From positions 7,480-71,479 of the forward strand of contig CAJARJ010000019.1 in the NCBI GenBank assembly GCA_903944345.1: a stretch of 64,000 nucleotides of DNA. The letters run 5' to 3'. How positions within the stretch are numbered: the first letter of the stretch is position 1; the number at the start of each line of letters is the position of its first letter. The notes beneath the pieces are model-generated. The model saw only the letters and a list, made by a program, of their open reading frames with translations. It was not told where the DNA came from and searched no databases. A program made the position numbers and the translations under genes. Shown here piece by piece: positions 13,776-48,400 of this stretch. This DNA is from Candidatus Omnitrophota bacterium (GTDB taxonomy: Bacteria; Omnitrophota; Gorgyraeia; Zapsychrales; Fredricksoniimonadaceae).

Positions 13776-13778
13776 AGA

Positions 13779-22552: not shown

Positions 22553-22629
22553 GACCCCATCGTCTAGTCTGGTCAGGACACAAGCTTTTCAAGCTTGGAA
22601 CGCGGGTTCAAATCCCGCTGGGGTCGCCA
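22553..22629 (+). tRNA. tRNA-Glu (anticodon TTC), CCA encoded
   Basis: GACCCCATCGTCTAGTCTGGTCAGGACACAAGCTTTTCAAGCTTGGAACGCGGGTTCAAATCCCGCTGGGGTCGCCA. Acceptor GACCCCA/TGGGGTC; anticodon loop TTTTCAA; T-loop TTCAAAT. Confidence 0.92.
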
Positions 22630-22744
22630 TAATTTTTTCTCATCCGCTGATTCCGAGTGTTCAAAGCTTTCCCTTTCCAAGTCCGGCAAAAAGATTAAAT
22701 ATTAGGATATAAAGTCATAAAAAAGGTTATAGTAGGATTACTAT

Positions 22745-23740: not shown

Positions 23741-23812
23741 TTTTTTGAATGCCTGCTTGTTTTCCCGTAGTTAAAAGATATAATCTGATTATCTTAAATA
23801 AACGGAGGAGTT

Positions 23813-24775: not shown

Positions 24776-24789
24776 CCGGGAGACAAGAT

Positions 24790-25701: not shown

Positions 25702-25704
25702 GGA

Positions 25705-27378: not shown

Positions 27379-27396
27379 ATAATTGTTTCAGAAATT

Positions 27397-29571: not shown

Positions 29572-29574
29572 ATA

Positions 29575-29916
29575 ATGACTGCATATAATATTTCTCGCCA
29601 GACTTTAATTGCAAAACAAGTGCGGTTCGCAGATAGCCCATGGGCGCGCATGAAGGGCTTATTGGGACGCGACTCCTTGAATTCTGATGAGGGATTACTT
29701 ATAACCTGTTGCAATTCAATTCACATGTTTTTTATGCGGTTTTCCATTGATGCTATTTTCTTAGACCGTAATAATAGTGTTGTTGGACTTGTTTGTGCAA
29801 TTCCGCCGTTTTCTTTAAGTCCTGTTTTCTGGAATGCTTCCAAGGTGCTGGAATTGTCAAGTGGCACCATAAAGTTATCAGGTACAGAACTTAACGACAA
29901 GATTGAAATTTCCTGA
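29575..29916 (+). CDS. DUF192 family protein
   Basis: 113 aa; conserved DUF192 core IHMFFMRFSIDAIFLD. Confidence 0.7.
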   Translation: MTAYNISRQTLIAKQVRFADSPWARMKGLLGRDSLNSDEGLLITCCNSIHMFFMRFSIDAIFLDRNNSVVGLVCAIPPFSLSPVFWNASKVLELSSGTIKLSGTELNDKIEIS

Positions 29917-30027: not shown

Positions 30028-31833
30028 ATGGGAGTAACTTACAAATTAAAATCAGAAGTGGTTGATTTTATAGTAGAGAGCAAGCGGAGTGTCCCCTCGC
30101 TAAGTTGCCGGAAGCTGGTTGATCTTGTTCGGCAGCGTTTCTCGATGGATGTTTCGAAATCTTCGATTAATGCAGTTCTTAAAGAGTCTGACTTGAGCAG
30201 CCCAGTTGGACGCCATCCCAAGGGGGTTCCGCTTAAGAATTTTTTTATTCCCAAAGAGAAAAAAGAAAGCTTATTGCAGCAGGTTCAGCCATTTCTTGTT
30301 CCGGAAACTGTTGAGGTTGAGCCGTTGATGGAATTAAGGGAGGATTTTATCCAGCAGTTACCCCCGGAATTACCGCAAGTTGCGCAAAGCGACCAGCCTT
30401 TGAGGCTGGCGCCGGATATCATGAAGCTTGGCTTAGTAGAAGATGTTGCGCCAGAAGACTTTATATTACCGGAAAAGCCTTCAAATTTGAGCGACCCGGA
30501 GCCGGAACAAATTTGGAACATTTCAGATAATTTGCTATTTGAAAAAGGCGGAGCAATTTTTTTTGCTGCCATGTGGTGGCAACGGGCAAGATCTCCGGTG
30601 ATTGGTCAGGCTGTATGGCGCAGTGGTATTTTTGATGGCGGGCGTTTTCTTGAGACTGACTTTATACAATGGCTGGAAGGTCTCTTTTTGTTTCAAGCGA
30701 TTTTCGAAAAAAAGCAAGAGGACTTCTCGCGCGAAGAAATGCGAACGCTTACGGCGCTTTTTGCACACAAACAAACCGATCTTCCTGTGCCCTTAATAAG
30801 GAAGGAAGCATCAGCCGAGGAAAACAGGCGGTTGGCTTGGGACATTGAATCGGCATTGGCAGAAGCTTTTAGCATGGTTAGTTGTTATGAGCTGATCACC
30901 AGATCGGGTCGCAAAGTGCTGATGAATGCTTTTTTAGCCGGTTTTTTGCAGAATTTGCAGGAGGCAGGAAATTCTAGTCTTCCATTATTTTTTGCAATTG
31001 AGCGGGTTGCAGACCGTTTGGTGAATAATATTGAGCCATTGACGCTGCTGTATGGCGCTGGTCAAGATCCTTTTTCGCCATTGTTTGCTGAATACTGGGA
31101 TTTATTGACCGGAGAAACGCAAGATCCGATAGATAGAGTACTGGTTCATATGGTGGATGGCCGGGTTTTCCCGATGTTTGAACGTTTGGCGGCGATCAGT
31201 CGTTCGGTTGTTTTAATTGGGCCGGATCGGGAACAGGTTCTATCGGGCATTGATTTCGGGATTATTGCTGATGGCACAGCGTTTCACTGTGCTTTTACAG
31301 AAAGGACAGCTTCTTATTGCAAAGGGCTTGCAACTATTGCTGGAAAGAAAATTTATGCTTTTTGGGTGAGAGGGCTAGATCAGTCAGAACAGAAAATAAT
31401 ATTGACCAATATTTCTGCCAGTGCTTGTACTGATAATGAGATTGTGGCCCTTTTGTTCAGGACTTATGCACAGCAGCCGGTAACGGATATTTCGCAAAAG
31501 CTTCATCCATTGGAAAATCGGCCATTTTTAGTGGAGAAGCAAGGGAATTTGACCACAATTTTTTATACTCTTTATGAGTATCTGCATCGGGAGCTTGTAG
31601 CCAGTGTATTTCCCGTTCTTAGTCAGCTGGCACTTGATGAATTCAGAAATAATGTTTACACCTTACCGGCGCATATTATTAATCAGCCGGGGGCCTTGCT
31701 GGTTCGACTGCAAGCTGAACCCGGACATCCTTTTTTTGATGCCTTGGTTGAGGCGGCCAGATGGATTAATGCCCAGGACATTCGCGATCAACAAGGGCGC
31801 AGGCTGTATCTTTCCGTAGCTTCTTCTAAATAA
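30028..31833 (+). CDS. Hypothetical 601-aa protein with an HTH-like N-terminus
   Basis: Long ORF with protein-like composition; N-terminal ~50 aa (VVDFIVESKRSVPSLSCRKLVDLVRQRFSMDVSKSSINAVLKE) resembles a DNA-binding HTH; remainder unrecognised. Preceded by the palindrome TGTCCACTCTGGACA (29984-29998). Confidence 0.55.
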   Translation: MGVTYKLKSEVVDFIVESKRSVPSLSCRKLVDLVRQRFSMDVSKSSINAVLKESDLSSPVGRHPKGVPLKNFFIPKEKKESLLQQVQPFLVPETVEVEPLMELREDFIQQLPPELPQVAQSDQPLRLAPDIMKLGLVEDVAPEDFILPEKPSNLSDPEPEQIWNISDNLLFEKGGAIFFAAMWWQRARSPVIGQAVWRSGIFDGGRFLETDFIQWLEGLFLFQAIFEKKQEDFSREEMRTLTALFAHKQTDLPVPLIRKEASAEENRRLAWDIESALAEAFSMVSCYELITRSGRKVLMNAFLAGFLQNLQEAGNSSLPLFFAIERVADRLVNNIEPLTLLYGAGQDPFSPLFAEYWDLLTGETQDPIDRVLVHMVDGRVFPMFERLAAISRSVVLIGPDREQVLSGIDFGIIADGTAFHCAFTERTASYCKGLATIAGKKIYAFWVRGLDQSEQKIILTNISASACTDNEIVALLFRTYAQQPVTDISQKLHPLENRPFLVEKQGNLTTIFYTLYEYLHRELVASVFPVLSQLALDEFRNNVYTLPAHIINQPGALLVRLQAEPGHPFFDALVEAARWINAQDIRDQQGRRLYLSVASSK

Positions 31834-31898
31834 AGCACGTTCAGTGGGTTGACGGGAAAAGCTGATATGCTATACTTCAAATGTCTTTAAGAGATAAG

Positions 31899-32111: not shown

Positions 32112-32264
32112 ATGAGATGGGTAACAAACCGCAATGCTCAAAATCTTATTGAATATACCCTTGTCGTTGCCGTTGTTTCGGCTGCAGTTGTGGCCATGAG
32201 CACCTACGTGTTTCGCGCTGTTCAGGCGGCACAGAAAGAAATTATAAGGGAAGCCCAGGAATAG
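32112..32264 (+). CDS. flp: Flp-family pilin (50 aa)
   Basis: MRWVTNRNAQNLIEYTLVVAVVSAAVVAMSTYVFRAVQAAQKEIIREAQE: short basic leader, then EY at the Flp processing position and a hydrophobic helix. Below the ORF-track length cutoff. Confidence 0.7.
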   Translation: MRWVTNRNAQNLIEYTLVVAVVSAAVVAMSTYVFRAVQAAQKEIIREAQE

Positions 32265-32296
32265 TTTGTTCTCATCCGGATTTTTAAGGAGGATGT

Positions 32297-32503
32297 ATGA
32301 AGTTAAGGAATAAAAGAGGTCAAGGAACACTCGAGTATGTGATCTTGGTCACAGCAGTAATCGTTGTAGTTATTTATTTTCTTATGGGAACAGGTCAGGG
32401 GTCATTCCAGAACACAATGAATGGTGCATTAAACGAGGCCACTGAAGGAATGTCCACGATGTCCGGTCGTTTTGATGCGGCGTTTGCTCCTCCGGCCCCT
32501 TGA
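32297..32503 (+). CDS. flp: Flp-family pilin
   Basis: MKLRNKRGQGTLEYVILVTAVIVVVIYFLMG...; RBS AAGGAGG upstream. Confidence 0.85.
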   Translation: MKLRNKRGQGTLEYVILVTAVIVVVIYFLMGTGQGSFQNTMNGALNEATEGMSTMSGRFDAAFAPPAP

Positions 32504-32554
32504 GGTTGTGAAGAGTTGACAGAAAGAACAGAATGGCTCAACTGGAGGTAAATC

Positions 32555-32947
32555 ATGTTAAAGGTGTTAAGAAATAAAAAGGCTCAGAATACGGCGGAAT
32601 ACGCCATTCTGATCGCTTTGGTTGTTGGCGCTGTGGTCGCCATGCAGTCTTACGTTCAGCGCGGACTGCAGGCTAGAACACGAGGAACTTCATTGTATAT
32701 GAGAGACGAGATCTCAAATGCGATGAAAGCGGCCGATGCCAGTATGGCCGCCAGTATCGGTAATACCGGGCAGTACAATCCGTATTATCTGGATCAGCAG
32801 TATGAAACGACTCGCGATAGTGAAGAGACTGCAACTGCGGCTCCTTCCAATATCGTGTTGACGGGAACGTCAAATAAGTCTCGTGCTGCCGCCGGATATG
32901 ATGCGACTCTATATAATGGGGATGTAGGCGCAACGGGTCAGGATTAA
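32555..32947 (+). CDS. flp: Flp-family pilin with extended C-terminal domain
   Basis: MLKVLRNKKAQNTAEYAILIALVVGAVVAMQSYVQRGL...; paralog of the gene at 33522. Confidence 0.85.
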   Translation: MLKVLRNKKAQNTAEYAILIALVVGAVVAMQSYVQRGLQARTRGTSLYMRDEISNAMKAADASMAASIGNTGQYNPYYLDQQYETTRDSEETATAAPSNIVLTGTSNKSRAAAGYDATLYNGDVGATGQD

Positions 32948-32976
32948 AAAGCAGGTATTAAACAGGAGAGAAAATA

Positions 32977-33303
32977 ATGAGTATAAGAACAAAAAACAAT
33001 AAGGGACAAACGACCCTGGAGTATATCATCCTGATCGTTATTATCATTGCCGCCCTGTTGACTATACAAGGGTATCTCAAACGCGGCATTCAGGGGCGTC
33101 TGCGCAGTTCAGCGGACGATATTGGTGAGCAGTATGAATCGACAGCCACTAATCATACAAGAACAACGCGAGTTGCCTCTGTTACCAATGAGCGAACGAC
33201 ACAGGCCGGGGAATTCACCGGGTTTATTGGCCAGGAAAACAAGACAGTTGACGAATCTTATAACACGGCTAATGCAGAAATTGTGTACATGCCGGCGCCC
33301 TAA
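32977..33303 (+). CDS. flp: Flp-family pilin with extended C-terminal domain
   Basis: MSIRTKNNKGQTTLEYIILIVIIIAALLTIQGYLKRGIQGRLRSSADDIGEQYE...; paralog of the genes at 33916 and 35058. Confidence 0.85.
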   Translation: MSIRTKNNKGQTTLEYIILIVIIIAALLTIQGYLKRGIQGRLRSSADDIGEQYESTATNHTRTTRVASVTNERTTQAGEFTGFIGQENKTVDESYNTANAEIVYMPAP

Positions 33304-33318
33304 TCAGGAGAGAAACGC

Positions 33319-33501
33319 ATGAAAACAAACAAAGGTCAAAGTACTCTTGAATATGTACTGTTAGTGACAGCAGTTCTGGTGGTCATTATAGGTTGGGTGG
33401 CAGGGCCGGCATCTCCTTTCAAGCAGGCGGTCAACAATACCTTGTATGACGCATCAAATCAAATTGAGTCCATGTCCCAGCGCATTATGGCGGGGAAATA
33501 G
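33319..33501 (+). CDS. flp: Flp-family pilin
   Basis: MKTNKGQSTLEYVLLVTAVLVVIIGWVAGP...; paralog of the gene at 32297. Confidence 0.85.
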   Translation: MKTNKGQSTLEYVLLVTAVLVVIIGWVAGPASPFKQAVNNTLYDASNQIESMSQRIMAGK

Positions 33502-33521
33502 TTGTATAACGAGGAGGATCT

Positions 33522-33887
33522 ATGTTAAAAAGAACTCGCGATCGCAAAGGCCAGAATACGGCGGAATACGCGATCCTGATTGCGCTGGTTGTTGGAGCGG
33601 TTATTGCGATGCAGACTTACGTGCAGCGCGCCTTGAACGGACGGGTTTTTGATACGACCAAATATATGGCCGATAAAACCGCAGAAGTTACAGGAAACGG
33701 GTATCAGTATGAGCCGTATTATACAAATTCGGATTATCAGGTGGATAAAAACACTGGAGAAATCCGTAATCAGTATAATGCCGAGATTGGGATGTATTCG
33801 ACAGCTGAAACATTAAGAGCTGGTAATGAGGTGTCGGATTTTAACCGAGATGGCCTTACGGATTACGGTGACGTAGTTGTTCCGTAA
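33522..33887 (+). CDS. flp: Flp-family pilin with extended C-terminal domain
   Basis: MLKRTRDRKGQNTAEYAILIALVVGAVIAMQTYVQRAL...; paralog of the gene at 32555. Confidence 0.85.
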   Translation: MLKRTRDRKGQNTAEYAILIALVVGAVIAMQTYVQRALNGRVFDTTKYMADKTAEVTGNGYQYEPYYTNSDYQVDKNTGEIRNQYNAEIGMYSTAETLRAGNEVSDFNRDGLTDYGDVVVP

Positions 33888-33915
33888 TTTAATGGAAATT
33901 ATCAGGAGGCATTGC

Positions 33916-34245
33916 ATGAGAATCAATCTAAAAGGAAAAAACGGGCAAACAACCCTTGAGTACGCGATTTTGGTTATGATTATTATTGGCGCTTTGTTGA
34001 CGATTCAGGCCTACATCAAGCGCGGTATTCAGGGGCGGGTCAAAAGTTCGGCGGATGATATCGGCGAGCAATACGATCCGGGTAACACAAATTATGTTAA
34101 GGTAACTAATTCGATATCCAATACCCGCCAGACGTTTAATTCCGGTATTTCACGTTCGGAGTTAACGGCGGCGGATACGGTGGATGTTTCGACCTTCCAG
34201 GAGATAAGTAATCTGGAGTCGGGTGGTTATTGGGGAACACCGTAA
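33916..34245 (+). CDS. flp: Flp-family pilin with extended C-terminal domain
   Basis: From the internal ATG with RBS AGGAGG 6 nt upstream: MRINLKGKNGQTTLEYAILVMIIIGALLTIQAYIKRGIQGRVKSSADDIGEQYD... The track start at 33877 is probably too long. Confidence 0.82.
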   Translation: MRINLKGKNGQTTLEYAILVMIIIGALLTIQAYIKRGIQGRVKSSADDIGEQYDPGNTNYVKVTNSISNTRQTFNSGISRSELTAADTVDVSTFQEISNLESGGYWGTP

Positions 34246-34275
34246 TACGGTTTGGCTTTAGAGCCTTCAGGCTTT

Positions 34276-34318
34276 AAACATCAATGCCGGTTCCGTGACG
34301 GAACCGGCATTGATGTTT
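34276..34318 (+). repeat. Perfect 20-bp inverted repeat with 3-nt loop (hairpin or attenuator) inside the pilin array
   Basis: AAACATCAATGCCGGTTCCG-tga-CGGAACCGGCATTGATGTTT. A smaller hairpin AGCC-ttca-GGCT lies at 34262-34273. Located 30 nt after the stop of the 33916 pilin gene. Confidence 0.8.
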
Positions 34319-34330
34319 AGAAAGAAAAAT

Positions 34331-34681
34331 ATGATTAAGATGTTTCACGGACAACGCGGTCAGAGTGTGGCAACAGAATATGTTGTCATTTTTTTTCTGG
34401 CGATTGCCGCGGTGGCTGCAATGGCCATGTATGTCCGGCGCGCGTTTCAGGGGCGGGTTTATGATGCGAGAATGTATACAATGCAGAAAGCTGCCCAGGC
34501 TTTGGGAGAGTCGGTTCCTTTTGAGTATGAGCCATATTATGCCCAGACGGATAGCAATCTGGCCAAAAGAGCGGATGAAATGACGAGCATTAGTGGTGCT
34601 GAGGTTGTTCTGCGGACGTCTTTCGAAGCTACCACCACGAATAGTCATAGCGTGCAAAGGCAACCGGACAGAGGAATTTAG
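34331..34681 (+). CDS. Flp-like pilin, divergent (start uncertain)
   Basis: MIKMFHGQRGQSVATEYVVIFFLAIAAVAAMAMYVRRAFQGRVYDA...; G-x4-EY motif plus hydrophobic helix. Upstream in-frame ATGs at 34295 and 34313 lie inside the hairpin. Confidence 0.7.
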   Translation: MIKMFHGQRGQSVATEYVVIFFLAIAAVAAMAMYVRRAFQGRVYDARMYTMQKAAQALGESVPFEYEPYYAQTDSNLAKRADEMTSISGAEVVLRTSFEATTTNSHSVQRQPDRGI

Positions 34682-34707
34682 TCGAAATTGCTGTCGGGGG
34701 AAGCGAG

Positions 34708-35061
34708 ATGTTAAAAAAGAAACGTGCCCAGTCACTGGCTGAATACTCGATGTTAACCAGTATTATTGTGGCGGCTATTGTGGTTGTTTATCCGCTGGTC
34801 AAGCGCGGGCACCAGAGTTTGATTAAAGTGGTGGCTGATCAGGTTGGAAGCCAGAGGGATGCTGAGCAGGACTTTTCGCGAGGCTCTTCTTATCTGGCCT
34901 GTTCGGAAACTCGATATAACAGCCGCATTGGTGATGTAGTTCAGGAGGATGGGTACATAGACGGATCGGGAACTGCGCATTTTGCTTATATCCGAACTTA
35001 TGACCAGTCAACCAACAGTTCGAGTATTGAGATTACAAACATGGAGCATGATACGCAATGA
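34708..35061 (+). CDS. Flp-like pilin, divergent
   Basis: MLKKKRAQSLAEYSMLTSIIVAAIVVVYPLVKRGHQ... Confidence 0.72.
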   Translation: MLKKKRAQSLAEYSMLTSIIVAAIVVVYPLVKRGHQSLIKVVADQVGSQRDAEQDFSRGSSYLACSETRYNSRIGDVVQEDGYIDGSGTAHFAYIRTYDQSTNSSSIEITNMEHDTQ

Positions 35062-35390
35062 TCAGGCGCACAAATCAAGACGGACAGACAATTCTTGAGT
35101 ATTCGATCATCATGATTATTGTGATAGCTACTCTTATCACTATGCAGGGCTATATCAAGCGCGGCTTTCAGGGACGCTGGAAATCGGCAGTGGACGATCT
35201 TGGGGAGCAGTATGACCCCCGCGCGGTTTGCAGTACGATTGTTTATTCACAGTCCTCTAATTCAGTTGCCAGTGTTCGCGTGATGGATCATACATCCCAG
35301 AGTGGAATATCGGGCAAGTATACTATACGCAACGATCAGGTGCAGTCTTCAGAGACTAAAACCGGGACAACGGAAGTTCGCCGTCCCTAG
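35058..35390 (+). CDS. flp: Flp-family pilin with extended C-terminal domain
   Basis: MIRRTNQDGQTILEYSIIMIIVIATLITMQGYIKRGFQGRWKSAVDDLGEQYDP...; third member of the KGQTTLEY..KRGIQGR subfamily; ATGA overlap with the preceding gene. Confidence 0.85.
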   Translation: MIRRTNQDGQTILEYSIIMIIVIATLITMQGYIKRGFQGRWKSAVDDLGEQYDPRAVCSTIVYSQSSNSVASVRVMDHTSQSGISGKYTIRNDQVQSSETKTGTTEVRRP

Positions 35391-35402: not shown

Positions 35403-36659
35403 ATGGGGGATGTTCGTAAAAGTTCAGACTGGCGCAAGGCTCAGGCGACCATTGAAATAGCAGCTTTTGGGGCTATTGTTATTTTTATTATTGGATTGAT
35501 TGTTCAGCAAGGATACAGTTCTACCCAACAGCAGAATATACAGCTACAGGCGCTAAGGATAGCGTTGCTAAAGTCTTATGAGAGTTCGCTGCAGGGCAGT
35601 TCGGCCCGTAATTCGGGGAGTTTTATGCTGATTGAGGATCGGCTTTCTCCGGCGGTGGGGAAATATGGCCCGCTGGATCGGCAGGTTTTTATGTCGAGTG
35701 GATCCGGTGTTATGAGCTATTTGTTGTTTCGTCCGATTGATTGGGAAGATTTGCCCAGAGACCTTCCGCTAACGGATGTTAGCGTTAACGGGCAGGATTT
35801 TGTTTTCAGAACAGCTGCTGCCGTCAAGTATACGATTAATCCAGGCTCAATTGTTGCCAATGATAGCATCACCATGCAATCGGGATCTGATCCTGATGCG
35901 GCCAGATTAAGCGAGGAAGGACTATGGGCCTGGCAGAGCATCGTCAAGTATAGCGAAGATTGGACCGGAAGTGCGGACTGTTCCAATATGCGCCGGAATG
36001 CAGCTAAAGAGAAGCCCTGTTCGGCTGCTGTGCAGGACAAGATTCCTTGGAAATGGAAAAAGGTTTCCTGGGGAGAGGCGGCTTCCGAGATTAATCTGGA
36101 TGACGGGGTTTACCCGAGTTACGATATTGATGGCGACCGTAGCGAAGAAACTCTTTACAAGATGAGCGGCAATACGGTATGGGTGATTGATTGGAACGCA
36201 GGTGATGTTGACAACAGTGCGGATGAATGGGAGTTTGCGGACGAAGAAGATATCCCCGGACTCAAAGACACAATGGAAATTGTCTCCATGCCGCTTTATC
36301 CCGGTGATCGTAACACATTGGAGATCAGGGAAAACGGAGCTTCCAGCCGAGCGACCAGCCTCAGCAGTAAAAGCCAGATGGATATTATTACCCGCAAGTT
36401 TGTGATGAATCCGCGCATGATCGGAGGAGGGACGCTTTGCTCAGGCGGCACACCTACCCAAGGATCAGTCGAAGCCTGCTGTCAGGGAGAGGGGTGTTGC
36501 TCTTCAGCTGACAATGCTTATAAAACCTGTTTTCAGTATGTTGACGGTTATGGCAGGAAGGTTCTTTATATTCGTAGCCGCATTCAAGATGAACGAAAGA
36601 GCGGATGGACGACTCCGGTGGTTCCGGCGGATATTGGAGATCGGACGATTTTCAAGTAA
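35403..36659 (+). CDS. TadE-like pseudopilin with a large Cys-containing C-terminal domain
   Basis: 418 aa; N-terminus KAQATIEIAAFGAIVIFIIGLIV resembles the TadE/TadF pseudopilin motif; 8 Cys including the cluster EACCQGEGCC. Confidence 0.65.
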   Translation: MGDVRKSSDWRKAQATIEIAAFGAIVIFIIGLIVQQGYSSTQQQNIQLQALRIALLKSYESSLQGSSARNSGSFMLIEDRLSPAVGKYGPLDRQVFMSSGSGVMSYLLFRPIDWEDLPRDLPLTDVSVNGQDFVFRTAAAVKYTINPGSIVANDSITMQSGSDPDAARLSEEGLWAWQSIVKYSEDWTGSADCSNMRRNAAKEKPCSAAVQDKIPWKWKKVSWGEAASEINLDDGVYPSYDIDGDRSEETLYKMSGNTVWVIDWNAGDVDNSADEWEFADEEDIPGLKDTMEIVSMPLYPGDRNTLEIRENGASSRATSLSSKSQMDIITRKFVMNPRMIGGGTLCSGGTPTQGSVEACCQGEGCCSSADNAYKTCFQYVDGYGRKVLYIRSRIQDERKSGWTTPVVPADIGDRTIFK

Positions 36660-36682: not shown

Positions 36683-36925
36683 ATGCTGGATCATATTCCG
36701 AAATCAAACCATTCGTGCGTCGGGCAGAGCACTGTGGAGTTCTGTTTCGGACTTTTTATTGTGTTGTTGCTTTTTTTTGCCCTGGTTCAGGCTGTACGGT
36801 GGGTGGTTCTGGAGAAGATCGAGTTGCGAGTTGATTTTGAACGTTCCTTGCAGACAGGCAGTGGAGCGTATCAGCAGCTGAATCCGCACTTTCATCGATT
36901 GCGGCCTTTGGACATGGAATATTAG
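36683..36925 (+). CDS. TadE-like pseudopilin (80 aa)
   Basis: GQSTVEFCFGLFIVLLLFFALVQ TadE-type N-terminal motif. Confidence 0.65.
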   Translation: MLDHIPKSNHSCVGQSTVEFCFGLFIVLLLFFALVQAVRWVVLEKIELRVDFERSLQTGSGAYQQLNPHFHRLRPLDMEY

Positions 36926-36944: not shown

Positions 36945-39773
36945 GTGGTTTGTTTTATGAAAAAAATAATGATGGATAACAGGGGGCAGATGGCGCTGTT
37001 GATGGTTTTGGTTGCTGCCATAGCGCTGGTGTGCCTGGCCATGACTCTGAATCTCACCCGGGTGGCGGCCACAAAAACGTTGACCATGATTGCAGCCCAT
37101 CAGGCATCTTCTTACACAGCTTCGCAAATGGCCAGCTATGCTCAGATGCAGAAAGAAACACAACTCGGAGGAAAGCAGAAAGTTTGTAAGAACACAGGAC
37201 TGCTGTCTTCTTTGTTGACATTTATTATTGTTCTGGTGATTGCGGTGATTGTGACGGTAGCTTCATATGGAACTGCGGGTCCTTCGATGTGGACTGTTGT
37301 TGCTGCGTGGGCAGCTGTAGCTATTTCGGCGGCCTCGGTGGTGTTGCAGGCTACGGTTATTCAGCCCGGATTGACCAAAATGTGGAATAAATTGCAGATG
37401 ACGATAGCAACGACGGAGGATCGTTTTCTGGAGATGGGACTGCAGGTGGCGCTTTCCGGAGCGGTGAGCGATAGTGAGCAAATTCCGGATTATTATGATT
37501 ATAATATGAACGGGGTGATATGGGATGGAGATATAAATTCTGATGAGCAGGATCAGATTTCCCGATTTTCTTATTACTACACGAAACATTTGCTGGATGC
37601 TTCGGCGGAATATGCTTCTTCAGGTGGCGTGGCCGGCATTAATCAGATGAAAACCATTTTAGGGGAGATTCGGGAGTCCTTTGGCCTTGAGATTGATCAT
37701 GGTTGTTGTGCAGACAAGGGGTATCACCCCGCTTTATGTAATCCATGTTGTGTCAGCAAGGAGTTGCGTCCGGGGTCCTGTCACCCGGAGATAGCTGATC
37801 CTGAGCTTTTTCCGGATGTCCCCTCCGAATGTATGGCTGGGGTCATGCCCTACTATCCGTTGAATTACGATCCTCTTTTTTGTAAGCGTATCCCTGATTC
37901 TTCCGTACCTGAGAGTGATCCCAAAAATAATACCATGGCTGCGGTGATGGGGATGGATGATGGAAATATGTCCATGACCAGGGTCTTTCCTAATCAGGCG
38001 TACTCAAGAGAAGCTTTGGACTCGATCAGAAACATGTTTCGTGGTGAGGATAGTGACGGCAAGCTGTTTCCGTTGTTATGGATGAATGCCGACGGCGCTC
38101 CTGAAACGTATAATCTTCGGGCCTCCGATATTACGGAGGCGTCGGCTAATTGTCATTGGTGTTCGGCGGATGGAGGGTTACCCAAGTGTGACAATGCGGG
38201 CAGTAATTATCATTATTGGAGAAATCCGTACACTGGGGCGGCTTTTACCCAGTTGGATCTGGGGGATCCGGTTTGTTCCGGGGACGGTTGCTGCGTTAAC
38301 AGACTTGTTCAGACAAGCGGTTCTTTACATGGCTTGCAAATGGACAAGGTTCAGGGTCTGGAAAGTGTCAGGAATTTCTCCGGACATGAAAGTTTTTTTG
38401 AAGAAGATCCTCCGGATGCAGATTGTCCCGGTAGTAGTGGTTTATGGCGCAAAGGATCAGACTTGTACTGTTCTTCGACCATTCCCTACTATGCCAATTG
38501 TTCCAAAGTTCAGGGCATGAGTTGTCAGGAAGAATATTCCGAAGATTCATGTGAGTGCAGTGAGTCCTTGAGGAAGGATATCTGGCGGGATGATGATCTG
38601 GATGATTTTACCGTCTGGCTGCGACAGGCGGCCACTTTAATTGATAGGTTTATGCAAACCAGCAGTCCGGCCTTGTTTGCCCAGATTGACGATTATTACG
38701 AAGACTTCACCAAACTTGTTGAAGAGTTGAGAGCCAAAAGAGGGCTCATGGAAGGTTGGCGGACGGGCTTTCAGCAGTGGCTGGATCGCACCGATTTCGC
38801 CGAAGGTGGTTTATGGTGCCTTCCAAATGATCCGAACACCTTGGCTATAGATGAGCGTGCCGCAGTGCTGGCTGCAGGACCATATGGTAGTGTTCAGTCT
38901 GTTGTTGCCTGCCTGGATTATAATAAAGATAATGCGGTTAAGCTGCAAACGTGTATTGACAATTCACAGACTTGTGCCAGCGGCCCGCGTCGCCTGGGTC
39001 CGGCCGGAGACCTGGAGTCGAACCAGAAGGCCGCCGTGAATGCCGATATCAAATTCCGCAAACGCTGGGAGTATTTAAGCGGGATTTATAATTTATCGGT
39101 CAGAGTACGCGACAGCCTGACCAGGGCTATTGATACGGTCGATGAATCCAGGTTGAACTCCTTGCTGTCCGCGCTGGAGAGTGTCAAGACGTCCTATGGA
39201 GCAGTCACGGGCAACAATTTTCTTATTTACGGCTGGAAAAGCGGGCAGGGAAAAGGCGGAAAATTGTGGCATGTGGTCAAGGCGGACTTATGGTTACCCA
39301 AGCGTTGTGATGGATTTGACTGTCGGGCTACACGTTTCCCATGGGTAAAAACTTATAAAAAGGGTTCTTTCAAGCGCTGTTACGAGTTATTTTCATATAA
39401 TGGTTGTGTGAAAACACTGGTTAAACGTTATGACGCTTCACCCAGAAGTCTTTATAATGAAAATGCCCAGTTTGGCAGTGGTTTGGCTGTATGGTTTCCT
39501 CGTAACAACAAAAACACAGGAAGCGCGACTATCAACGACGGACTGGATGAGTGTAATCAGGTTGAGTCAGGAGTGCCTTCAGGGGCTTTTATTCTTAGCA
39601 CACAGACCATGAGTTCAGCCCCAGCGGCTTGTCAGAATGCTCTGGCGGGAGCCCTCAGTTCTGCTACAACAGGAAGTGAGCTTTGTGCTGCTTATGAAAT
39701 GGTTGGCAGCGGTTATCAGGTAAGATTTCTGGACTGTAATCAGTGTGGCAGTGTAGATCCACATAATGACTAG
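36945..39773 (+). CDS. TadG-like large pseudopilin / putative pilus tip protein, cysteine-rich (942 aa, ~36 Cys)
   Basis: N-terminus NRGQMALLMVLVAAIALVCLAMTLNLTRVAATKTLTMIAAHQAS matches the TadG N-terminal pattern; remainder is rich in Cys clusters (GCCADKGYHPALCNPCC, CECSES, CNQCG). Confidence 0.7.
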   Translation: MVCFMKKIMMDNRGQMALLMVLVAAIALVCLAMTLNLTRVAATKTLTMIAAHQASSYTASQMASYAQMQKETQLGGKQKVCKNTGLLSSLLTFIIVLVIAVIVTVASYGTAGPSMWTVVAAWAAVAISAASVVLQATVIQPGLTKMWNKLQMTIATTEDRFLEMGLQVALSGAVSDSEQIPDYYDYNMNGVIWDGDINSDEQDQISRFSYYYTKHLLDASAEYASSGGVAGINQMKTILGEIRESFGLEIDHGCCADKGYHPALCNPCCVSKELRPGSCHPEIADPELFPDVPSECMAGVMPYYPLNYDPLFCKRIPDSSVPESDPKNNTMAAVMGMDDGNMSMTRVFPNQAYSREALDSIRNMFRGEDSDGKLFPLLWMNADGAPETYNLRASDITEASANCHWCSADGGLPKCDNAGSNYHYWRNPYTGAAFTQLDLGDPVCSGDGCCVNRLVQTSGSLHGLQMDKVQGLESVRNFSGHESFFEEDPPDADCPGSSGLWRKGSDLYCSSTIPYYANCSKVQGMSCQEEYSEDSCECSESLRKDIWRDDDLDDFTVWLRQAATLIDRFMQTSSPALFAQIDDYYEDFTKLVEELRAKRGLMEGWRTGFQQWLDRTDFAEGGLWCLPNDPNTLAIDERAAVLAAGPYGSVQSVVACLDYNKDNAVKLQTCIDNSQTCASGPRRLGPAGDLESNQKAAVNADIKFRKRWEYLSGIYNLSVRVRDSLTRAIDTVDESRLNSLLSALESVKTSYGAVTGNNFLIYGWKSGQGKGGKLWHVVKADLWLPKRCDGFDCRATRFPWVKTYKKGSFKRCYELFSYNGCVKTLVKRYDASPRSLYNENAQFGSGLAVWFPRNNKNTGSATINDGLDECNQVESGVPSGAFILSTQTMSSAPAACQNALAGALSSATTGSELCAAYEMVGSGYQVRFLDCNQCGSVDPHND

Positions 39774-39793: not shown

Positions 39794-40168
39794 TTGTTTA
39801 ACAGACGCGCCTATTCGGTTCTGGAATATCTTGTCATTTTTGTTGTTGTTATTGCCGCTTTGCTGGTTTTGGGGTCGTATATTCATAGTGCCATGCAGGG
39901 GCAATTTCGCACTGCGGGGGCGACAATGGCTGATCTTCGCCAGCATGAAACATCAAGTCAGGACTGCGCCTATGACGATCAGCTTGGGATATGGTATTCT
40001 GTTGCTTGTGTTGATAACGGCTGGGGCACGAATTGCCGTTATGCGGGTGTTGATAATGTCAATATGCGCGCGGAGTGTCGCAGCAACCCCTGTAATGGGC
40101 AATGTCCATTCTCCTGTTGTCAGGAAAATGTGAAACGTAGTTGTGCGATGCCTTGTGCTCCTTCCTGA
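39794..40168 (+). CDS. Pilin-like protein with a Cys-rich C-terminal module (14 Cys in 124 aa)
   Basis: SVLEYLVIFVVVIAALLVLGSYIHSAMQGQF pilin-like N-terminus, then CAYDD...CVDNGWGTNCRYAG...CRSNPCNGQCPFSCCQENVKRSCAMPCAPS. Confidence 0.7.
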   Translation: MFNRRAYSVLEYLVIFVVVIAALLVLGSYIHSAMQGQFRTAGATMADLRQHETSSQDCAYDDQLGIWYSVACVDNGWGTNCRYAGVDNVNMRAECRSNPCNGQCPFSCCQENVKRSCAMPCAPS

Positions 40169-40219: not shown

Positions 40220-41065
40220 ATGTTAGCGGTCAGTCTGTTTCTGTTTTTTCTTAGCGTGATGATATCTGTTTATTACGTGATTCCTTTTGTTGTTAGAAGG
40301 ATTATTGAGGTCAACAAGAATCGCGCACGCAATTTTGCCCGGGACATGGATCGAACCATGTTAACCCAGGACATTCAAAAAGTTCGGGTTCTTTTTATTA
40401 TCGGACCTTTTGTTTGTGGAGCCGCCGGTTTTTTTCTGGGTGGAGTGATTGGTGTTCTGGTTGGATCAGCGGTCGGTTTTGTGATCCCCAGAACGTATGC
40501 GTCTATCTTGCAGGGTCAGAGACGGGAACAGTTTGAAAAACAACTGGTGGATGCCCTTATGATCATGTCCAGTTCGTTTCGGGGCGGCTTGAGTCTGGTT
40601 CAGTCTATGGAATCGGTAGTTGATGAAATGCCCGATCCTATCCGCCAGGAATTCGGGCTCGTTCTGGGCGAGAACAAGATTGGAGTTCTTTTGGATGACG
40701 CTTTCAATCGACTTTATAAACGTTTGCCGTCACCGCCATTACAGCAAATGATTAGTGCTATTTTGCTGGCACGCGAGACGGGCGGAAATCTGCCGGCTAT
40801 CTTTTCGCGAATTGTGAGCACTATACGTGAACGTCGAAAGATCGAGGATAATCTTAAAGTTCTGACTTTGCAGGGTAAGCTGCAGGCTTTTGTGATGAGC
40901 GGCTTGCCGGTAGGGTTCTTTTTTCTGGTCAATACAACCAATCCCAATTATTTTAAGATCATGACCAATACCGATACGGGGCGCATGCTGTTGGCGGTTT
41001 GTGCGTTTTTATGGGTTCTTGGAACTTTCATGATCATAAAGATCAGTACTATCAAGGAGGTCTGA
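40220..41065 (+). CDS. tadB: Tad pilus inner-membrane platform protein TadB (GspF-like)
   Basis: 281 aa; T2SS-F domain (LYKRLPSPPLQQMISAILLARETGGNLPAIFSRIVSTIRERRKIEDNLKVLTLQGKLQAFVMSGLP). Confidence 0.85.
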   Translation: MLAVSLFLFFLSVMISVYYVIPFVVRRIIEVNKNRARNFARDMDRTMLTQDIQKVRVLFIIGPFVCGAAGFFLGGVIGVLVGSAVGFVIPRTYASILQGQRREQFEKQLVDALMIMSSSFRGGLSLVQSMESVVDEMPDPIRQEFGLVLGENKIGVLLDDAFNRLYKRLPSPPLQQMISAILLARETGGNLPAIFSRIVSTIRERRKIEDNLKVLTLQGKLQAFVMSGLPVGFFFLVNTTNPNYFKIMTNTDTGRMLLAVCAFLWVLGTFMIIKISTIKEV

Positions 41066-42443: not shown

Positions 42444-45400
42444 ATGGACAAGCAGCTGGATTCAAAGACCGTCGAGTCTTTTTCAACCGTTGCCGCAGCT
42501 GAAGCGCCTATCAGCGTTTATGCCGAGGGTGGCTTCCGGAGTCGTTTTAATTTCTGGATCCGCGCGGTTTCTGTTATTCTCATCTGCATTTTTCTTCCTG
42601 ATCAGATTGGCTGGGCTTTCAATTATAATCCGGCCGTGATTTATCCCCAGAATGCACTTAATTACCAGCCCGCACCGGTTTTAACTTCAGCCGAACGTTC
42701 TTCTGCGCAGATTGCTGGCAGTGTCGGTTTTCTTTTGAATCAGGTAAAAGGTCTTGAGCAAGCGCGCTTTGAGCTGAAGCTTAATCCTGCAAATGCTCTT
42801 CAGCTGGCGAAAGAGCTCAAGCAACCGGTTTTGGCAATCGATAGCCGTAGAAGTTTTAACGAATTGGCCATATCAGAAATTACGCAATGGCTGGCTGAGC
42901 CTCAGGTTCATATCCTTAATTGCGGCGTTTACGCGCTCAAGGATTTGTTGGATTTTGAGGGGATCAGCAAAACACCCGAAGAGCTGTCGGTCATAACCAT
43001 TCTGGCGGATCTTCTAAGCGATGTGCTTCGGACCGGGGACGAGCGTCTGAAAACATCATTGTTTGCCTTGAGCCAGGCTATGGATGCGTTTGGGCTGGAG
43101 TACCAGGCGGTCAAGCTTCGTCCGGAAAATCTCCGGTTGTTGGCCACACCTTTTATTGCTCATTTTAAAGATGAACATTTCGTAACAGTGCTGCGGATAG
43201 AGGGGGACACGGTTTATTTGAACGACATCGGAAACCCCGGTCAGATGTCGATCTCTGAGTTGGCGCAGCGGGCTTCCGGGTTTGCCCTGGCTCGGGAGAT
43301 GAAGTTTTTTGTGAAAGCTGGCTTTGAACGTGTTGCGCAAAACACACAAACATTCGTTTGGGGTGACAAATGGCGTAATAAGTCAGATGAACTGCCCGGG
43401 CTCGTGTCCAATTCTCAGATAGCCATGCAGGTAGGAATACAAGTTGTGGGGGCGCTGGCGGCCGCTTGGATGGGGCCAGGCGGATGGGCGGCGTATGCGA
43501 CGTTTTCCATGAGCATGGCAGCATCTTCTTTCGCGCAGGCGGTTGGACAGGTTTGTCAGATGCGCGGAGGCAGCGGTCAAAGCTGCATGTTGTTAAGTAC
43601 TGCGATTAGCGTTGGACTGACTATGGGGACTTCGGCGCTGCTTTCTGCCGGACAGGCGGCAGGAACCCAGGCTGCGGGTCAGGCTTTGGCTAAAGATGGA
43701 GTCACGAATGCTTCGGCTCAGGTTTCGCAGGAAACGGTCAACAAGGCGGCGTCTGAAGCGGCGGGAGCCATTTCTCGTAGCGGAGAGATTGCGACACAGG
43801 AGGCCATCACCTCGTCTGTGACCAAGGCGTTTGCCAATCAGGGGATTGCTGTCTCGGGCGAGTTGGGGGCCAAAATTAGTGCGGCTGCCGCGGCTAACGT
43901 TACCGCCAAGGTTGCCGAAGCTTCGGCTTCAACTATGGCATCAACATTTGCTGCCGGTTTTGCGCAAGGAGCTATTATTGGTGTCGCCAAAGGGGCGGTG
44001 GAGTACCAGGTTGTCAAGATGATCGACAAGGCTCTGGGGGACGACGATTATATTCTCAAGAGCACAGTGCAGGCCATTGCTTCATCGGTCGCAGGGGCGA
44101 TGGTGGGATCGATTGTTCAGTGGGGAATCAGTAATGCGGTCACCGCTTACAACGAGTCTTCCGCGGCAAATACCGATACAGAAACAGCCGCTGCGTCAAC
44201 AGACACTTCAGCAACATCGACACAGGCGGCGACTACAGCAACAGACTCGGCCATGATTCGCCTGACCAAGCTGGACGGCGGCTTTAATCCGTATGACTTG
44301 GGCAAGAATTCATTAGGAACGGTATTGTCGCGCACATTGATGGATCGTTCGCTTTTGGCCGGAGTTGTCGGGCATTTGGCGGCCATGGGCGTGCGCTATG
44401 CGGTTTCCGGTGGCGCGGTGACCCAGGAAGAAGAGGGAGATTTATCTGTTGTGTTGGGCCAGCTGGGTAATACCTTCGGCCAGATGGCTGGAAACTTTGC
44501 GATGGGCCAGAGTAAAATCGGTTATGACAACCGTACGCCGGAACAAACGGTCAAGGATGCCAAGGACTGGACAGCTTTGTTTAAACAGGCTATCCCTAAA
44601 GCCGTGGTTTCTGCCGGCCTGACTTATGCGCTCCTGGCCATGGAAGAAAGCGTTATCGGAGACGATGACGGGTCTCATTCCTATAAAGAAAAACAGATGG
44701 CGTTTCGCAACACCGCGTTTATGATCTCGGGCGTTATGACTGGCCTGGCTCTGGGGTTAGCGGCGGAGTATGCTCATCAAGATGCTGATTCTCCTGTGGG
44801 TGCGACAACCTCTTCTGTTGTAGAGGATGGCCGGTTAGAGGCTGGTTACAAGACTGGCTATTGGCAGCAGCAAAAAGAATTTCAGATGGATTTCTGGGGT
44901 CTTGGCGCCATGCAGACGCTCACCAACGAGATGGGCGGAACACCGTATTCGTTAAATGCGGGGCTGGCTGCGGGCCAGTTAACCAGCACCATGCAGGGGT
45001 TAACCGGTTTTACGCCTCAAACCGCCTGGCAGATAGACAAGATGTGGCTGGCAACCAAGAAGGCCAATTCGGAGCTTTCAGCAGACAACAGGGAATCAAA
45101 CAGCGTTCTTAAGTTGCGTCACCGTATTGCAATCTTCGATATTATTGATCCTGGCATGATCAATATTGATTATGTTAACTCACAATTCTCGGCCGGAGTT
45201 GTCAGCAATGTTATTGCTACCGGAGAGATTGCAGCCAGCGCGACTTTCGCTCGTGGAAGCATTGACGGGCAGCAGTATTTGACCGATTGGGGTTTCCAGT
45301 GGCGGCCGGCCATAACCAGGGATATTGTCACTCCGGATGGCAAGCCTACCGGGCGGGCATTGGTTTTTATGGGGGCTACAAATGATGTTAACCGTTTGCT

Positions 45401-48400
45401 GGATTTTCGGGGAGTTGAAAATCTTGGGCTGTCGCGGGAAACCGATCCGAAGACCGGCAAAGTTCGGGAGAGCCTGACGGGAACTTATACTAAAGAGTAC
45501 GCGCACGCGACAGGACTTGATAAGGCTATGGCCGGAATCGACGATCTGACCAGAGAGCTTAACAGTGCGGGAGTCAATGGAATTTCTGCCGAAAGATTGC
45601 AGGCGGCGCTGGCTAAGAATGGCCTGAAAGGGGCGGTGGTTTCGAGCGGCCCGGACGGTTCACAGAAGGTTCTGGTTGATGTCGATGGAAAGACGGTAAG
45701 CCTGGATGCCTCTCTTTTACAGCAGGCAGGTCTCATTGCGCCGGCTGGTGTGGATAAGAATGGCAAGTTGCAGTGGAAGTTTAATGCGGGTTCTGCCCCT
45801 GGATCTGTTTTTTCAAACAGAAATGCCAAGGGAACAGTTTTTTCCTTTTCAGGGGCTGAGGTGGTAGCCGATACCAGTTCACCTGTTTATTTCTTGCACA
45901 AGATTGCTGGCTTGCCGGGGGCTCCTGTTGATTGGGCGCGTTCGACCCAGCCGGAAAATGTATGGAAGAATTACACAGTTGATCTGGGTGCCCGTAACGC
46001 GGCCATGACCAATAATCCAGGCACGACATTCTCCGCACAGCAAATAAATCAGCCCGGTGGAGCCAGTCAGTCTGTGTTTAGCCTGGAGCTTGATTATGCC
46101 GGTAACAGTGGAAATCCGTTGCAAATGGCCAGCGGATACAGAGGTATCAAGAAGAACCGGGCCGGAGAGGCTGATCGCAAGACACTTTCATTTGACCTGA
46201 CCGCCCAGGCTAATCCTGATGGTTCTGCTGTTTTTGGCGAAAGAAGAAATCTTTCTATTGCCGGACTGGTGATCGAGCCCGGCAACAAGAGCGTTATGGA
46301 TCTTGCTTTTACGTCTATGAATAATGTCGGAGGCAACAACCTTCGATATAACGTAACCGGTGTCAATACGGTGACCGGAGAGGTTTTTGATCTGGCCCGT
46401 TTCAAAAAAGCTTTTGAAGCCGGAATCAGAAAGCAGGAACAGATTGGCCTGCTAGATTTGTTTCTGCCGCAAATGTCCGGAAAAACGGCGGCGGCGTGGC
46501 TTTCGGTGATGGCCACATCCCAGGCTTTGGGGCAGTTGACGCCGGGGATTACGGCTCCGGTTTTAATGAATATGGGAATAAGGCAGAAGGGGTCGGCTCT
46601 GCCGGAAGCGTCCCTCGTTTCCTCTATAGACGGAAAGATTAATCCCTTACAGTTGAATACCTATACAGCCGACGGACAGGTCAAGGATGTGTTGCGTGTC
46701 ACGGCGCGCAATACGCCGCTTCTTCAGCTTGCCGCGGGAGGCGGAGCGAATAACTTTCTGGGGAATGTGCACAATGTTTCGAGAACTTTTCTGAACAACC
46801 ATTTGCCGATGGGTTCGGCGGATCGCTTTGGCTATTATTATGCCGCAGGGACTCCTTCCGTCGGCAAAGGTGGAGGGAAAGTCACCCAGTATGATTCCCA
46901 GTTGTTGCCGATGTTTAGCGGTGATGAAGTTGGGTTGGAAGGCTGGCTGAGAGAAGGGACGGTGGCCAGGATCAGCGACGGCAAGAAAAAGGGATCGTAT
47001 AAGGGCAAGATCCTCTCAGACTTTTTTCTGGTTAATCCGCTGGATCCGGCGGCCGGAGAATTGGTGCGCCTTGTCGGAGAGATCGGTATTACCCGCGCCG
47101 GGCATGGCCAGACATTAACGGCTGAAGAAGGAAAAACGATCAAAAATTTTGCCTTGCAGCAGGCCCCCGAGGGCATAGTGGCTGTTATTGACAATAACGG
47201 CCTGTCACCGTTTCTGGAACGCGCGGTGCTGGCTTATCCGCACAAGGGAGCTTTCAGTCCCGAACAAGGCGGACAGGTGGGAGATATTACCCTGACCACC
47301 AATCAGACGGGACACGCTTTGTCCAAATATCCCAAGTTGGGTTTTGTGTTTCATGACAAGGCTGGTTGGCAGTTGTTGCCGGAACAAAGCAGTTCTTCAA
47401 CAACAAAAGATCGTTACCGTCGCGGCGACGGGGCCATTATGGAGCGGTTGTTCAAGCGGACGATTCGTATTTTTGGCAGGCAGACTATAACTCAGAAAGA
47501 TGGCAGCGTGACGGGATCAACTATCGATCCGGCGATTTCCAAGCGCAAGGTTTCGGATACGGGTTGGGTGCAGATGGGCGAAAGAATGATCGCGCCGCCG
47601 CCAGCTCCGAAGCCAGTGGCTAGGGCGGCTGGGGGAAGTGGAGACGGATCGCAGAAGGTGGGGGCGGAGATCGAATATACCGAACAGTCTTTGGATACAG
47701 CGGCTCGAGAACAAGTAGCAAAGGCGAAAAAAGATCAAGGAATTGATGTTCCGCCAACTGAGCAGGAGGTTGCTGCGGCGAAAAAGAGCATTCTGGCAGA
47801 ATTAAACTCTTCTGAGTCTGTCGAGGGAGGGGGAACAAAAGGTGAATGGATGCGCTTTAGGCTGCAACAGTCCGCGGCAAGAAAATCAGCGGCAGCCTTT
47901 GAGCAAGGCGGAGAAGATAATGAAGCGCTTCTTGCTGAACAGGAAGCTGCCAGCGAGGCGGGGTCAGGGGTCTTTTCCGGGCTTGATAAACCTGTGACCG
48001 AGAAAAGCCTTGAACGAAAAGTTAAAGCGCAGCAAACAAATGACAATACAGTCCACCTAAAGCCAGATCAGGGAGCGATGGGGTCGTATCTTACGGGGGC
48101 TGTTGGAGCGCCCAAGGCCGAGGAGCTTTATCCTGAAGTAAAGGGTTCAGGGGAACAAACGGCCAAGACGGGGTCTCAGTGGAAAAAAGCAAAAACCGAG
48201 CAGGTTTCTTTGGCGATCGAAGCTAATGGTGTGGTGACCCCAGGGGCCATAACCTTTGAAGCAACAACCTATCTCGGACGTAAAGGGGCAGCGGGGCAAG
48301 CCGCGGAACAAATCAATGTATGTGTTCAGACTAATTGCAAGGCTGTCGAGACACCCTATCAGGCCGCATATGACGCAAAAACAGGTCAATGGCTTTTGAC

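Follow-up and report, generated by a model that had tools for sequence, protein, structure and literature searches.

The forward strand of the 64,000-nucleotide stretch analysed here (the window) carries ten small genes, P1–P10, packed into positions 32112–35390. Together with p124, p80, p418, and p942, these genes are best read as encoding the pilins of a Tad-type (type IVc) filament that is conserved directly upstream of a giant gene in Omnitrophota, a reading to which we assign a probability of roughly 0.7. The presence of Flp-type pilin genes in a Tad locus had been claimed in a first-pass annotation of the window, and a reading as type IV (Flp/class III signal peptide) pilin genes is borne out by a processing signature common to the products and by a full set of Tad machinery genes. 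That annotation counted eleven pilin genes between 32112 and 35390; ten lie there, and an eleventh Flp-like gene, p124, is located further downstream, set apart from the array by three larger pseudopilin-like genes (p418, p80, and p942). The three peptides it quoted are P4, P3, and P2. The pilin genes and a candidate promoter are listed below, with an arrow at the predicted cleavage site.

31849..31876, + strand: candidate promoter of the pilin operon, TTGACG-16-TATACT with TG before the second hexamer; sigma-70-like, 10/12 matches, top-ranked.
32112..32264, + strand: P1, 50 amino acids (aa), NRNA↓QNLIEY; Flp-type, short and probably no more than a helix; opens the array and is a candidate for the major pilin.
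32297..32503, + strand: P2, 68 aa, NKRG↓QGTLEY; short, type P2/P5; strong Shine-Dalgarno sequence.
32555..32947, + strand: P3, 130 aa, NKKA↓QNTAEY; long, type B (P3/P6); QY-NPYY motif.
32977..33303, + strand: P4, 108 aa, NNKG↓QTTLEY; long, type C (P4/P7); ADDIGEQYE motif.
33319..33501, + strand: P5, 60 aa, TNKG↓QSTLEY; short, paralogue of P2 (44% identity).
33522..33887, + strand: P6, 121 aa, DRKG↓QNTAEY; type B, paralogue of P3 (42% identity); QYEPYY motif.
33916..34245, + strand: P7, 109 aa, GKNG↓QTTLEY; type C, paralogue of P4 (65% identity over 66 aa).
34313..34681, + strand: P8, 113–128 aa depending on the start, GQRG↓QSVATEY; type B-related; possible starts at GTG 34295 and ATG 34313, 34331, and 34340, with 34313 or 34331 taken as the start, giving about 116–122 aa.
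34708..35061, + strand: P9, 117 aa, KKRA↓QSLAEY; divergent, type C-related, without a Pfam match.
35058..35390, + strand: P10, 110 aa, NQDG↓QTILEY; type C-related (VDDLGEQYDP), its start overlapping the stop of P9.
39794..40168, + strand: p124, the eleventh Flp-like pilin, 124 aa, NRRA↓YSVLEY; Cys-rich C terminus; orthologue in related locus L088.

Every gene of the array has its own start codon and most are preceded by good Shine-Dalgarno sequences, with intergenic gaps of −4 to about 85 bp, the range being set by which P8 start is used. The P7 open reading frame (ORF) reaches upstream to a TTG at 33877, yet its Shine-Dalgarno sequence sits before the ATG at 33916. The C-terminal extensions that the first-pass annotation described are present in many of the genes, seven of the ten products being 108–130 aa in length and thus some 50–80 aa longer than the 50–68-aa ones. 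The candidate promoter is situated in the 279-bp gap between the gene for a 601-aa protein and P1; the promoter scan as a whole did not rise above shuffled sequences, and this site is a lead only. A terminator scan inside the array gave nothing convincing, and an Rfam scan in and before the array found no riboswitch and no other RNA family.

The processing signature was defined as a Lys or Arg in the leader, then Gly, Ala, or Ser, four to five residues, Glu followed by Tyr, Phe, or Trp, and 18 mostly hydrophobic residues, and it was searched for in six frames. The window contains 12 ORFs with this signature, all on the + strand between 32112 and 40168 and all within the Tad locus, whereas 100 shuffles of the window gave 0.11 on average and never more than 2. 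The observation of a pilin array is real and well beyond chance. Each of the P1–P10 products has a short leader rich in Lys and Arg, Gly or Ala at position −1, a Q-x-x-x-E-Y site, and a hydrophobic segment of about 20 residues. When P1–P10 are aligned with p124, the E-Y pair is invariant and Gln at +1 nearly so, while position −1 is Gly at seven and Ala at four of the 11 sites; the exceptions to the pattern are P8, with five residues before E-Y and therefore Glu at +6, and p124, with Tyr at +1. Of the G-x4-EY site proposed in the first-pass annotation, the E-Y element holds throughout, whereas the Gly and the spacing do not. The same site recurs in the wider clade, where 134 distinct sites show [KR][KR], Gly (66%), Ala (33%), or Ser at −1, Gln at +1 (97%), S-T-L, Glu at +5 (100%), and Tyr (90%).

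Assignment of these proteins to established families is less uniform. Against the Pfam gathering cut-offs (Flp_Fap PF04964, 32.2 bits; Class_IIIsignal PF04021, 23.7 bits; TadE PF07811, 22.9 bits), most array genes match Class_IIIsignal better than Flp_Fap. Two products exceed the Class_IIIsignal cut-off (P2, 35.3 bits; P5, 24.8 bits), P4 is borderline at 23.6 bits, and P7 (19.3 bits), P6 (17.5 bits), and P3 (15.7 bits) fall below it, with no match for P1, P8, P9, or P10. None reaches the Flp_Fap cut-off, the scores being 20.1 bits for P1 and 14.5 bits for P6, with no match for the other array genes. An NCBIfam search of the ten genes returned sub-threshold matches only. Homologues of P1 (n = 48, 47–68 aa) carry a precomputed PF04964 match in 14 of 48 cases and many are named Flp, and P1 is best treated as a divergent Flp, the other nine ranking as non-members by their PF04964 scores. 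The very small, single-helix size of Flp pilins (about 40–60 aa when mature) fits P1, whose mature helix is about 41 aa, as well as P2 and P5, and does not fit the seven proteins of 108–130 aa. The families of the long types comprise 57 and 172 database clusters, nearly all without Pfam domains and annotated as UPF0333, Flp, or hypothetical proteins.

The shape of the long types was predicted with AlphaFold2, which placed a beta-meander after a single long helix, with confidence ranging from moderate to low. For P7 (type C), modelled from its family alignment, a helix at residues 13–51 is followed by four strands at residues 58–97, with a predicted local distance difference test (pLDDT) score of 69 overall and 55–72 in the sheet; for P6 (type B) the helix spans residues 8–57 and the strands that follow are of low confidence (pLDDT 64.5). 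Types B and C are homologous well past the N-terminal helix (hhalign probability 99.5%, E = 2.5e-22, 78 columns). Neither the models nor the profiles of the two types gave a significant match to any solved structure.

All genes from 23.8 kb onward, starting at a Rotamase_2 peptidyl-prolyl isomerase (PPIase), lie on the + strand, in the order PPIase, RcpC, secretin, TadZ-TadA, DUF192, 601-aa protein, ten pilins, p418, p80, p942, p124, TadB, TadC, and the giant ORF. Besides the PPIase and the pilins listed above, the locus contains the following genes.

24790–25701, + strand: RcpC/CpaB (Pfam).
25705–27378, + strand: RcpA-type secretin with a T2SS-T3SS_pil_N domain and a C-terminal TonB_C domain (residues 473–548).
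27397–29571, + strand: fused TadZ-TadA ATPase, 724 aa, with TadZ-like ParA/AAA_31 and TadA/CpaF T2SSE domains.
29575–29916, + strand: DUF192 gene (Pfam).
30028..31833, + strand: 601-aa protein without family assignment.
35403..36659, + strand: p418, large and pseudopilin-like, WRKA↓QATIEI; Cys-rich C-terminal part, no Pfam match; candidate tip subunit.
36683..36925, + strand: p80, TadE-like minor pilin, CVG↓QSTVEF; 20.4 bits against the TadE cut-off of 22.9.
36945..39773, + strand: p942, large and Cys-rich, NRG↓QMALLMVL without Glu at +5; in the TadG position, no Pfam match.
40220–41065, + strand: TadB, platform protein of 281 aa with one T2SSF domain.
41067–41957, + strand: TadC, platform protein of 296 aa with one T2SSF domain.
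42444..64000, + strand: giant gene of more than 7,185 aa, with a likely ATG at 42444 in a frame that is free of stops from 42432 as far as the window extends.

Of the components named in the Tad definition of MacSyFinder/TXSScan, a TadA-type ATPase, TadZ, TadB and TadC, an RcpA secretin, and RcpC are present, whereas tadV was not found in the locus. As for the pseudopilins of that definition, p80 scores below the TadE cut-off, and p418 and p942 have pilin-like N termini without a Pfam match. Cys-rich C-terminal parts are seen in p418, p942, and p124, whereas each of P1–P10 has 0–1 Cys. The position of p418 directly after the array is kept in relatives, p942 follows p80 there too, and orthologues of p80 occur in L084, L087, and L088. 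The secretin-TonB_C fusion is also seen in L001 and L111, and full-length matches to the TadZ-TadA fusion come from many phyla, including Bdellovibrio, Firmicutes, Acidobacteriota, Actinomycetota, and Chloroflexota. The giant protein has an N-terminal transmembrane helix and a Peptidase_C39-like domain, and its remaining approximately 5,189 aa match no Pfam family; a pilin signal at its start was considered and rejected, the N terminus not being pilin-like.

The machinery bears directly on the strongest alternative, which we consider rather unlikely, namely that the small proteins form a short periplasmic pseudopilus like that of a type II secretion system (T2SS), with one major and many minor pseudopilins, pushing hydrolases or processed pieces of the giant protein through the secretin in place of a long, adhesive pilus outside the cell. 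It has to be taken seriously because gene neighbourhood alone ties the system to its function. The helix-plus-beta-sheet prediction for types B and C fits the alpha+beta fold of pseudopilins, of which a T2SS has one major and four minor, and both a periplasmic PPIase and the TonB_C secretin are conserved in the locus. However, the machinery is all Tad-type (TadZ, a CpaF-like ATPase, RcpC, and two platform proteins each with a single T2SSF domain, whereas GspF has two), and GspC, GspL, and GspM were not found. The Q-x-x-x-E-Y site is likewise unlike the G↓F/M-T-L-x-E site of T2SS pseudopilins. P1 is of the Flp family, and the giant protein has its own membrane helix at the N terminus, giant proteins of this type being reported to have numerous transmembrane regions (West-Roberts et al. 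2023). Judged by its domains and cleavage sites, the machinery is better called Tad (type IVc pilus, T4cP) than T2SS.

Comparison with related loci shows how the repertoire of the Tad-type filament is organised. A metagenome scan with a type C pilin profile, together with the look-up of one homologue, provided 28 related loci, and the longer of these keep the gene order of the window between the PPIase and the beginning of a giant gene. Metagenome contigs as long as 312 kb also carry the exact locus. Among named sequences, the ATPase has its closest relatives in metagenome-assembled genomes of Candidatus Omnitrophota (60% and 51% identity), and the pilin homologues, wherever named, come from Candidatus Omnitrophota or Omnitrophica; the window contains no rRNA, and from these nearest relatives we infer that the host belongs to Omnitrophota. 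In the closer relatives, whose ATPase is 61–72% identical, nearly all pilins have one clear best match in the set from the window. Seven types with mostly conserved order (P1, P2/5, P3/6, P4/7, P8, P9, P10) can be recognised in this way, each with an orthologue in most relatives, in agreement with the several subfamilies noted in the first-pass annotation. The P1 type is the best-conserved pilin (63–68% identity across relatives), the P2/5 type is short, and types B and C carry QYEPYY and ADDIGEQYDP motifs, respectively. The one-residue insertion of P8 (GQSVATEY) is common to its orthologues in L085, L086, and L088 and suggests a specialised, non-shaft role for this protein.

The number of genes in the window reaches ten because the P2-P3-P4 unit is present twice (32297–34245), the second copy being P5-P6-P7. 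The protein identities between the copies are 44, 42, and 65%, and the duplication is therefore old. Other duplications have occurred in other lineages: L087 has type B in triplicate, and L103 and L106 have B/C pairs in alternation. Each related locus of the Omnitrophota type holds 6–11 small signature genes (7 in L088 and L085, 8 in L087 and L111, 9 in L106, and 11 in L103), so that the array is not peculiar to this genome, and the feature is part of the locus described by West-Roberts et al. (2023). The statement that the number lies far above that of ordinary Tad loci stands: in 43 Tad loci of other phyla with a fused TadZ-TadA and full 10-kb flanks, the number of small signature ORFs has a median of 1 and never exceeds 3. 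Array size is exceptional among Tad loci generally and typical for the Omnitrophota clade. A shorter locus from an unrelated uncultured bacterium (L030) has seven signature ORFs, with six tandem Flp-like genes of 52–66 aa and a KGQ..EY site at 716–2099 (+) upstream of its Tad genes; this run is an independent expansion of short pilins.

On the Tad-type reading, each pilin would be made with a class III signal peptide ([KR][KR]-[G/A]↓Q-S/T-x-x-E-Y), inserted in the inner membrane, and cut after the Gly or Ala by an A24-family prepilin peptidase presumably encoded elsewhere in the genome. By homology, the TadZ-TadA ATPase and the TadB/TadC platform would polymerise the subunits into a fibre that exits through the RcpA-type secretin. 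P1 is most likely the major (shaft) subunit because it is short, probably helix-only, the best conserved, of the Flp family, and encoded by the first gene. The remaining types (P2/5, P3/6, P4/7, P8, P9, and P10), most with a predicted small beta-sheet domain, are probably minor or adapter pilins of low abundance with a part in priming assembly, and they may join the shaft to a Cys-rich tip made of p418, p80, p942, and p124 that would contact prey cells.

The first-pass annotation had reported no prepilin peptidase in the window and no TadD between 24.8 and 42 kb, and this is correct: no ORF of the 64 kb has a Pfam match to Peptidase_A24 or to TPR/TadD. Precomputed Pfam matches in the 10 kb to the left of the window include neither an A24 peptidase nor TPR/TadD, and in 30 related loci TadV was not found, the only ORFs with several transmembrane helices being TadB and TadC. 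The absence of tadV from the locus is no anomaly, because the Tad detection model initially let tadV be encoded apart from the locus (Denise et al. 2019) and because in Bdellovibrio TadV is absent from the Tad loci and from all genomes (Avidan et al. 2017, PMC5430801). TadV may be located elsewhere in the genome.

Several observations nevertheless weigh against the Tad-type reading. A prepilin peptidase was found neither in the window and the 10 kb to its left nor in the related loci, and four of the 11 sites have Ala at −1, a residue that classical PilD-type enzymes cut less efficiently than their preferred one. P8, P9, P10, and p124 match no Pfam pilin model, and the beta domains are predicted with a pLDDT of 50–70 and matched no solved pilin. 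The major and minor roles are assigned only from gene order, size, and conservation, and the link to the giant protein is one of gene neighbourhood alone.

A more far-reaching interpretation, which we regard as doubtful, is that the locus encodes a distinct subclass of type IV filament, an obligate heteropolymer or ordered stack of at least seven Flp-derived mini-pilins that would be coupled to the giant membrane protein and present or position it on prey cells. Its peptidase would be archaeal-like, accepting Gly, Ala, or Ser at −1, or not of the A24 family, a non-standard type of processing that is proposed because tadV was never found in the locus.

The first-pass annotation had suggested a compositionally complex or antigenically variable fibre, and of these two proposals the first survives. 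That the paralogues are interchangeable alternative major pilins serving antigenic or phase variation appears very improbable, even though they are tandem genes with a constant N terminus and differing C termini and lineage-specific duplications are present. Each type has an orthologue, mostly at the same array position, in the genomes whose ATPase is 61–72% identical, and conserved, ordered orthologues of this kind argue for fixed, distinct roles and against a variable fibre. The paralogues are also old, being 25–65% identical to each other; all have their own start codons and most a strong Shine-Dalgarno sequence, so that they are not silent cassettes; and the array has the same sequence in three contigs from other samples as in the window, with 0–1 single-nucleotide polymorphism in 12.7–22 kb. 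Least probable of all, and hardly to be entertained, is that the small ORFs encode other membrane or secreted peptides, such as targets of the giant protein's C39 peptidase domain, for although a C39-like domain stands at the start of the neighbouring giant gene and several small ORFs have no Pfam match, C39-mediated cleavage of the leaders was rejected, since C39 peptidases cut at a double-glycine motif that these leaders lack, the invariant Glu at +5 with a 20-residue hydrophobic helix is the signature of type IV pilins, the genes lie between the Tad ATPase and platform genes in every relative, and homologues have been annotated independently as Flp, UPF0333, or class III signal peptide proteins.

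Two further genes lie between the ATPase and the array. In every Omnitrophota locus examined, a DUF192 gene comes after that of the ATPase, and 31 of 77 Tad loci of other phyla (L010–L082) have homologues too, usually about 1–5 kb downstream of their ATPase. DUF192 has the look of a recurrent but uncharacterised Tad accessory, and searching the literature brought up no role for it in pili. In the 601-aa protein only the N-terminal 60–100 residues or so, which are weakly helix-turn-helix-like, are kept in most relatives, the rest varying in sequence and length (about 600–830 aa), and the protein may be a locus-specific regulator.

The first 23000 positions of the window (1–23000) form the chromosome origin region, with a change of GC-skew sign near 16 kb and a GC content of 35–36% at 10–18 kb. 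The genes yidC, jag, and parAB are on the − strand and dnaA, dnaN, gyrB, and gyrA on the + strand, and some 8 kb separate dnaA from the start of the Tad locus; for V. archaeovorus LiM, genome positions of 12,382–29,832 have been given for its Tad locus. A 214-aa ORF at 6848–7492 (+), called as a gene on one public contig, is probably spurious, since part of its DNA is shared with two tRNAs of the cluster and with a flavoprotein gene on the opposite strand. The RNA genes of this region are the following.

415–568, − strand: 6S RNA beside pheT.
6661–7028, − strand: cluster of three tRNAs.
22553–22626, + strand: a further tRNA.

Omnitrophota are widespread, uncultured, ultra-small bacteria suspected of being predators or parasites of other microbes, and their giant genes with the adjacent pilus or secretion locus are the main genomic clue to their mode of attack. 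The present analysis resolves the many small genes of this locus into an ordered set of seven conserved types, of which one is an Flp-like candidate for the shaft and the other six are probably minor or adapter pilins. It would extend to a second, unrelated predator lineage the idea developed for Myxococcus that elaborate sets of minor pilins make Tad pili functional. The seven types provide concrete targets for metaproteomics, for cryo-electron tomography of Velamenicoccus co-cultures, and for the prediction of complex structures.

The locus shares TadA, TadB, TadC, TadZ, RcpA, and RcpC with the classical Tad/Flp systems of Aggregatibacter (flp-tadV-rcpCAB-tadZABCDEFG) and Caulobacter (cpa), as well as an Flp pilin with a G↓xxxxEY site and TadE/F/G-like pseudopilins. 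Classical Tad loci have one to three flp genes, include tadV and tadD, and encode TadZ and TadA separately, whereas the window has 10–11 pilins, most of them 108–130 aa in length, a fused TadZ-TadA, and neither tadV nor tadD. The archaeal Epd (EppA-dependent) pili with PF04021 signal peptides share with the pilins of the window Gln at +1, Glu at +5, and Gly or Ala at −1. In contrast to these, the context in the window is that of a diderm bacterium with a secretin and RcpC, and position +6 is Tyr, as in Flp, and not Phe. Tad systems are thought to be derived from an Epd-like archaeal system (Denise et al. 2019).

Among predatory bacteria, Bdellovibrio loci share with the window both the fused TadZ-TadA architecture and the lack of TadV in the locus. 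Three of the Bdellovibrio flp genes are not interchangeable and each is needed for predation, and its four flp genes were the largest complement known at the time (Avidan et al. 2017, PMC5430801); two of the four are in the locus and the Flp proteins are short, compared with the 10–11 pilins of the window. Tad complexes occur across the Velamenicoccia and are expressed in the predator V. archaeovorus, and the TadB and TadC proteins of Omnitrophota group with those of Bdellovibrionales (Seymour et al. 2023). The Kil Tad pilus of Myxococcus xanthus has one major Flp, two Flp-like adapters, and 12 TadEFG-like tip pilins (Herrou et al. 2025, PMC12075869). Its tips are rich in Cys and disulfides and determine prey range, and its peptidase comes partly from outside the locus (PMC12075869). 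Kil, the Tad system of a predator, resembles the locus in the window in the unusual size of its set of pilins, and the Cys-rich p418, p942, and p124 resemble its disulfide-rich tip pilins. The two differ in that the Kil pilins are spread over four clusters with interchangeable three-gene tips, whereas the ten small pilins of the window lie in one operon, and in that the expanded class is TadEFG-like in Kil and consists of small Flp-derived proteins here. Kil also has a T3SS* partner; none was seen in the window, where the giant gene stands instead.

The closest counterpart is the conserved secretion system of more than 10 subunits that generally precedes the giant genes of Omnitrophota (West-Roberts et al. 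2023, bioRxiv 10.1101/2023.11.21.568195), in which gspD/E/F homologues, rcpC, a Rotamase_2 PPIase, and many small class III signal peptide genes were described; the association of giant gene and secretion locus is repeated in a 2026 preprint (bioRxiv 10.64898/2026.06.07.730766). The window agrees with that description in each of these components and in its Omnitrophota host, and its locus likewise lies directly upstream of a giant gene with an N-terminal C39 domain. The small genes were not dissected in either report. The window is a further example of an already described locus type and not a new kind of system, and what is new here is that the small genes have been counted and sorted into seven orthologous types, that their G/A↓Q...EY site has been defined and a helix-plus-beta-sheet shape predicted, and that the duplication of the triplet has been recognised.

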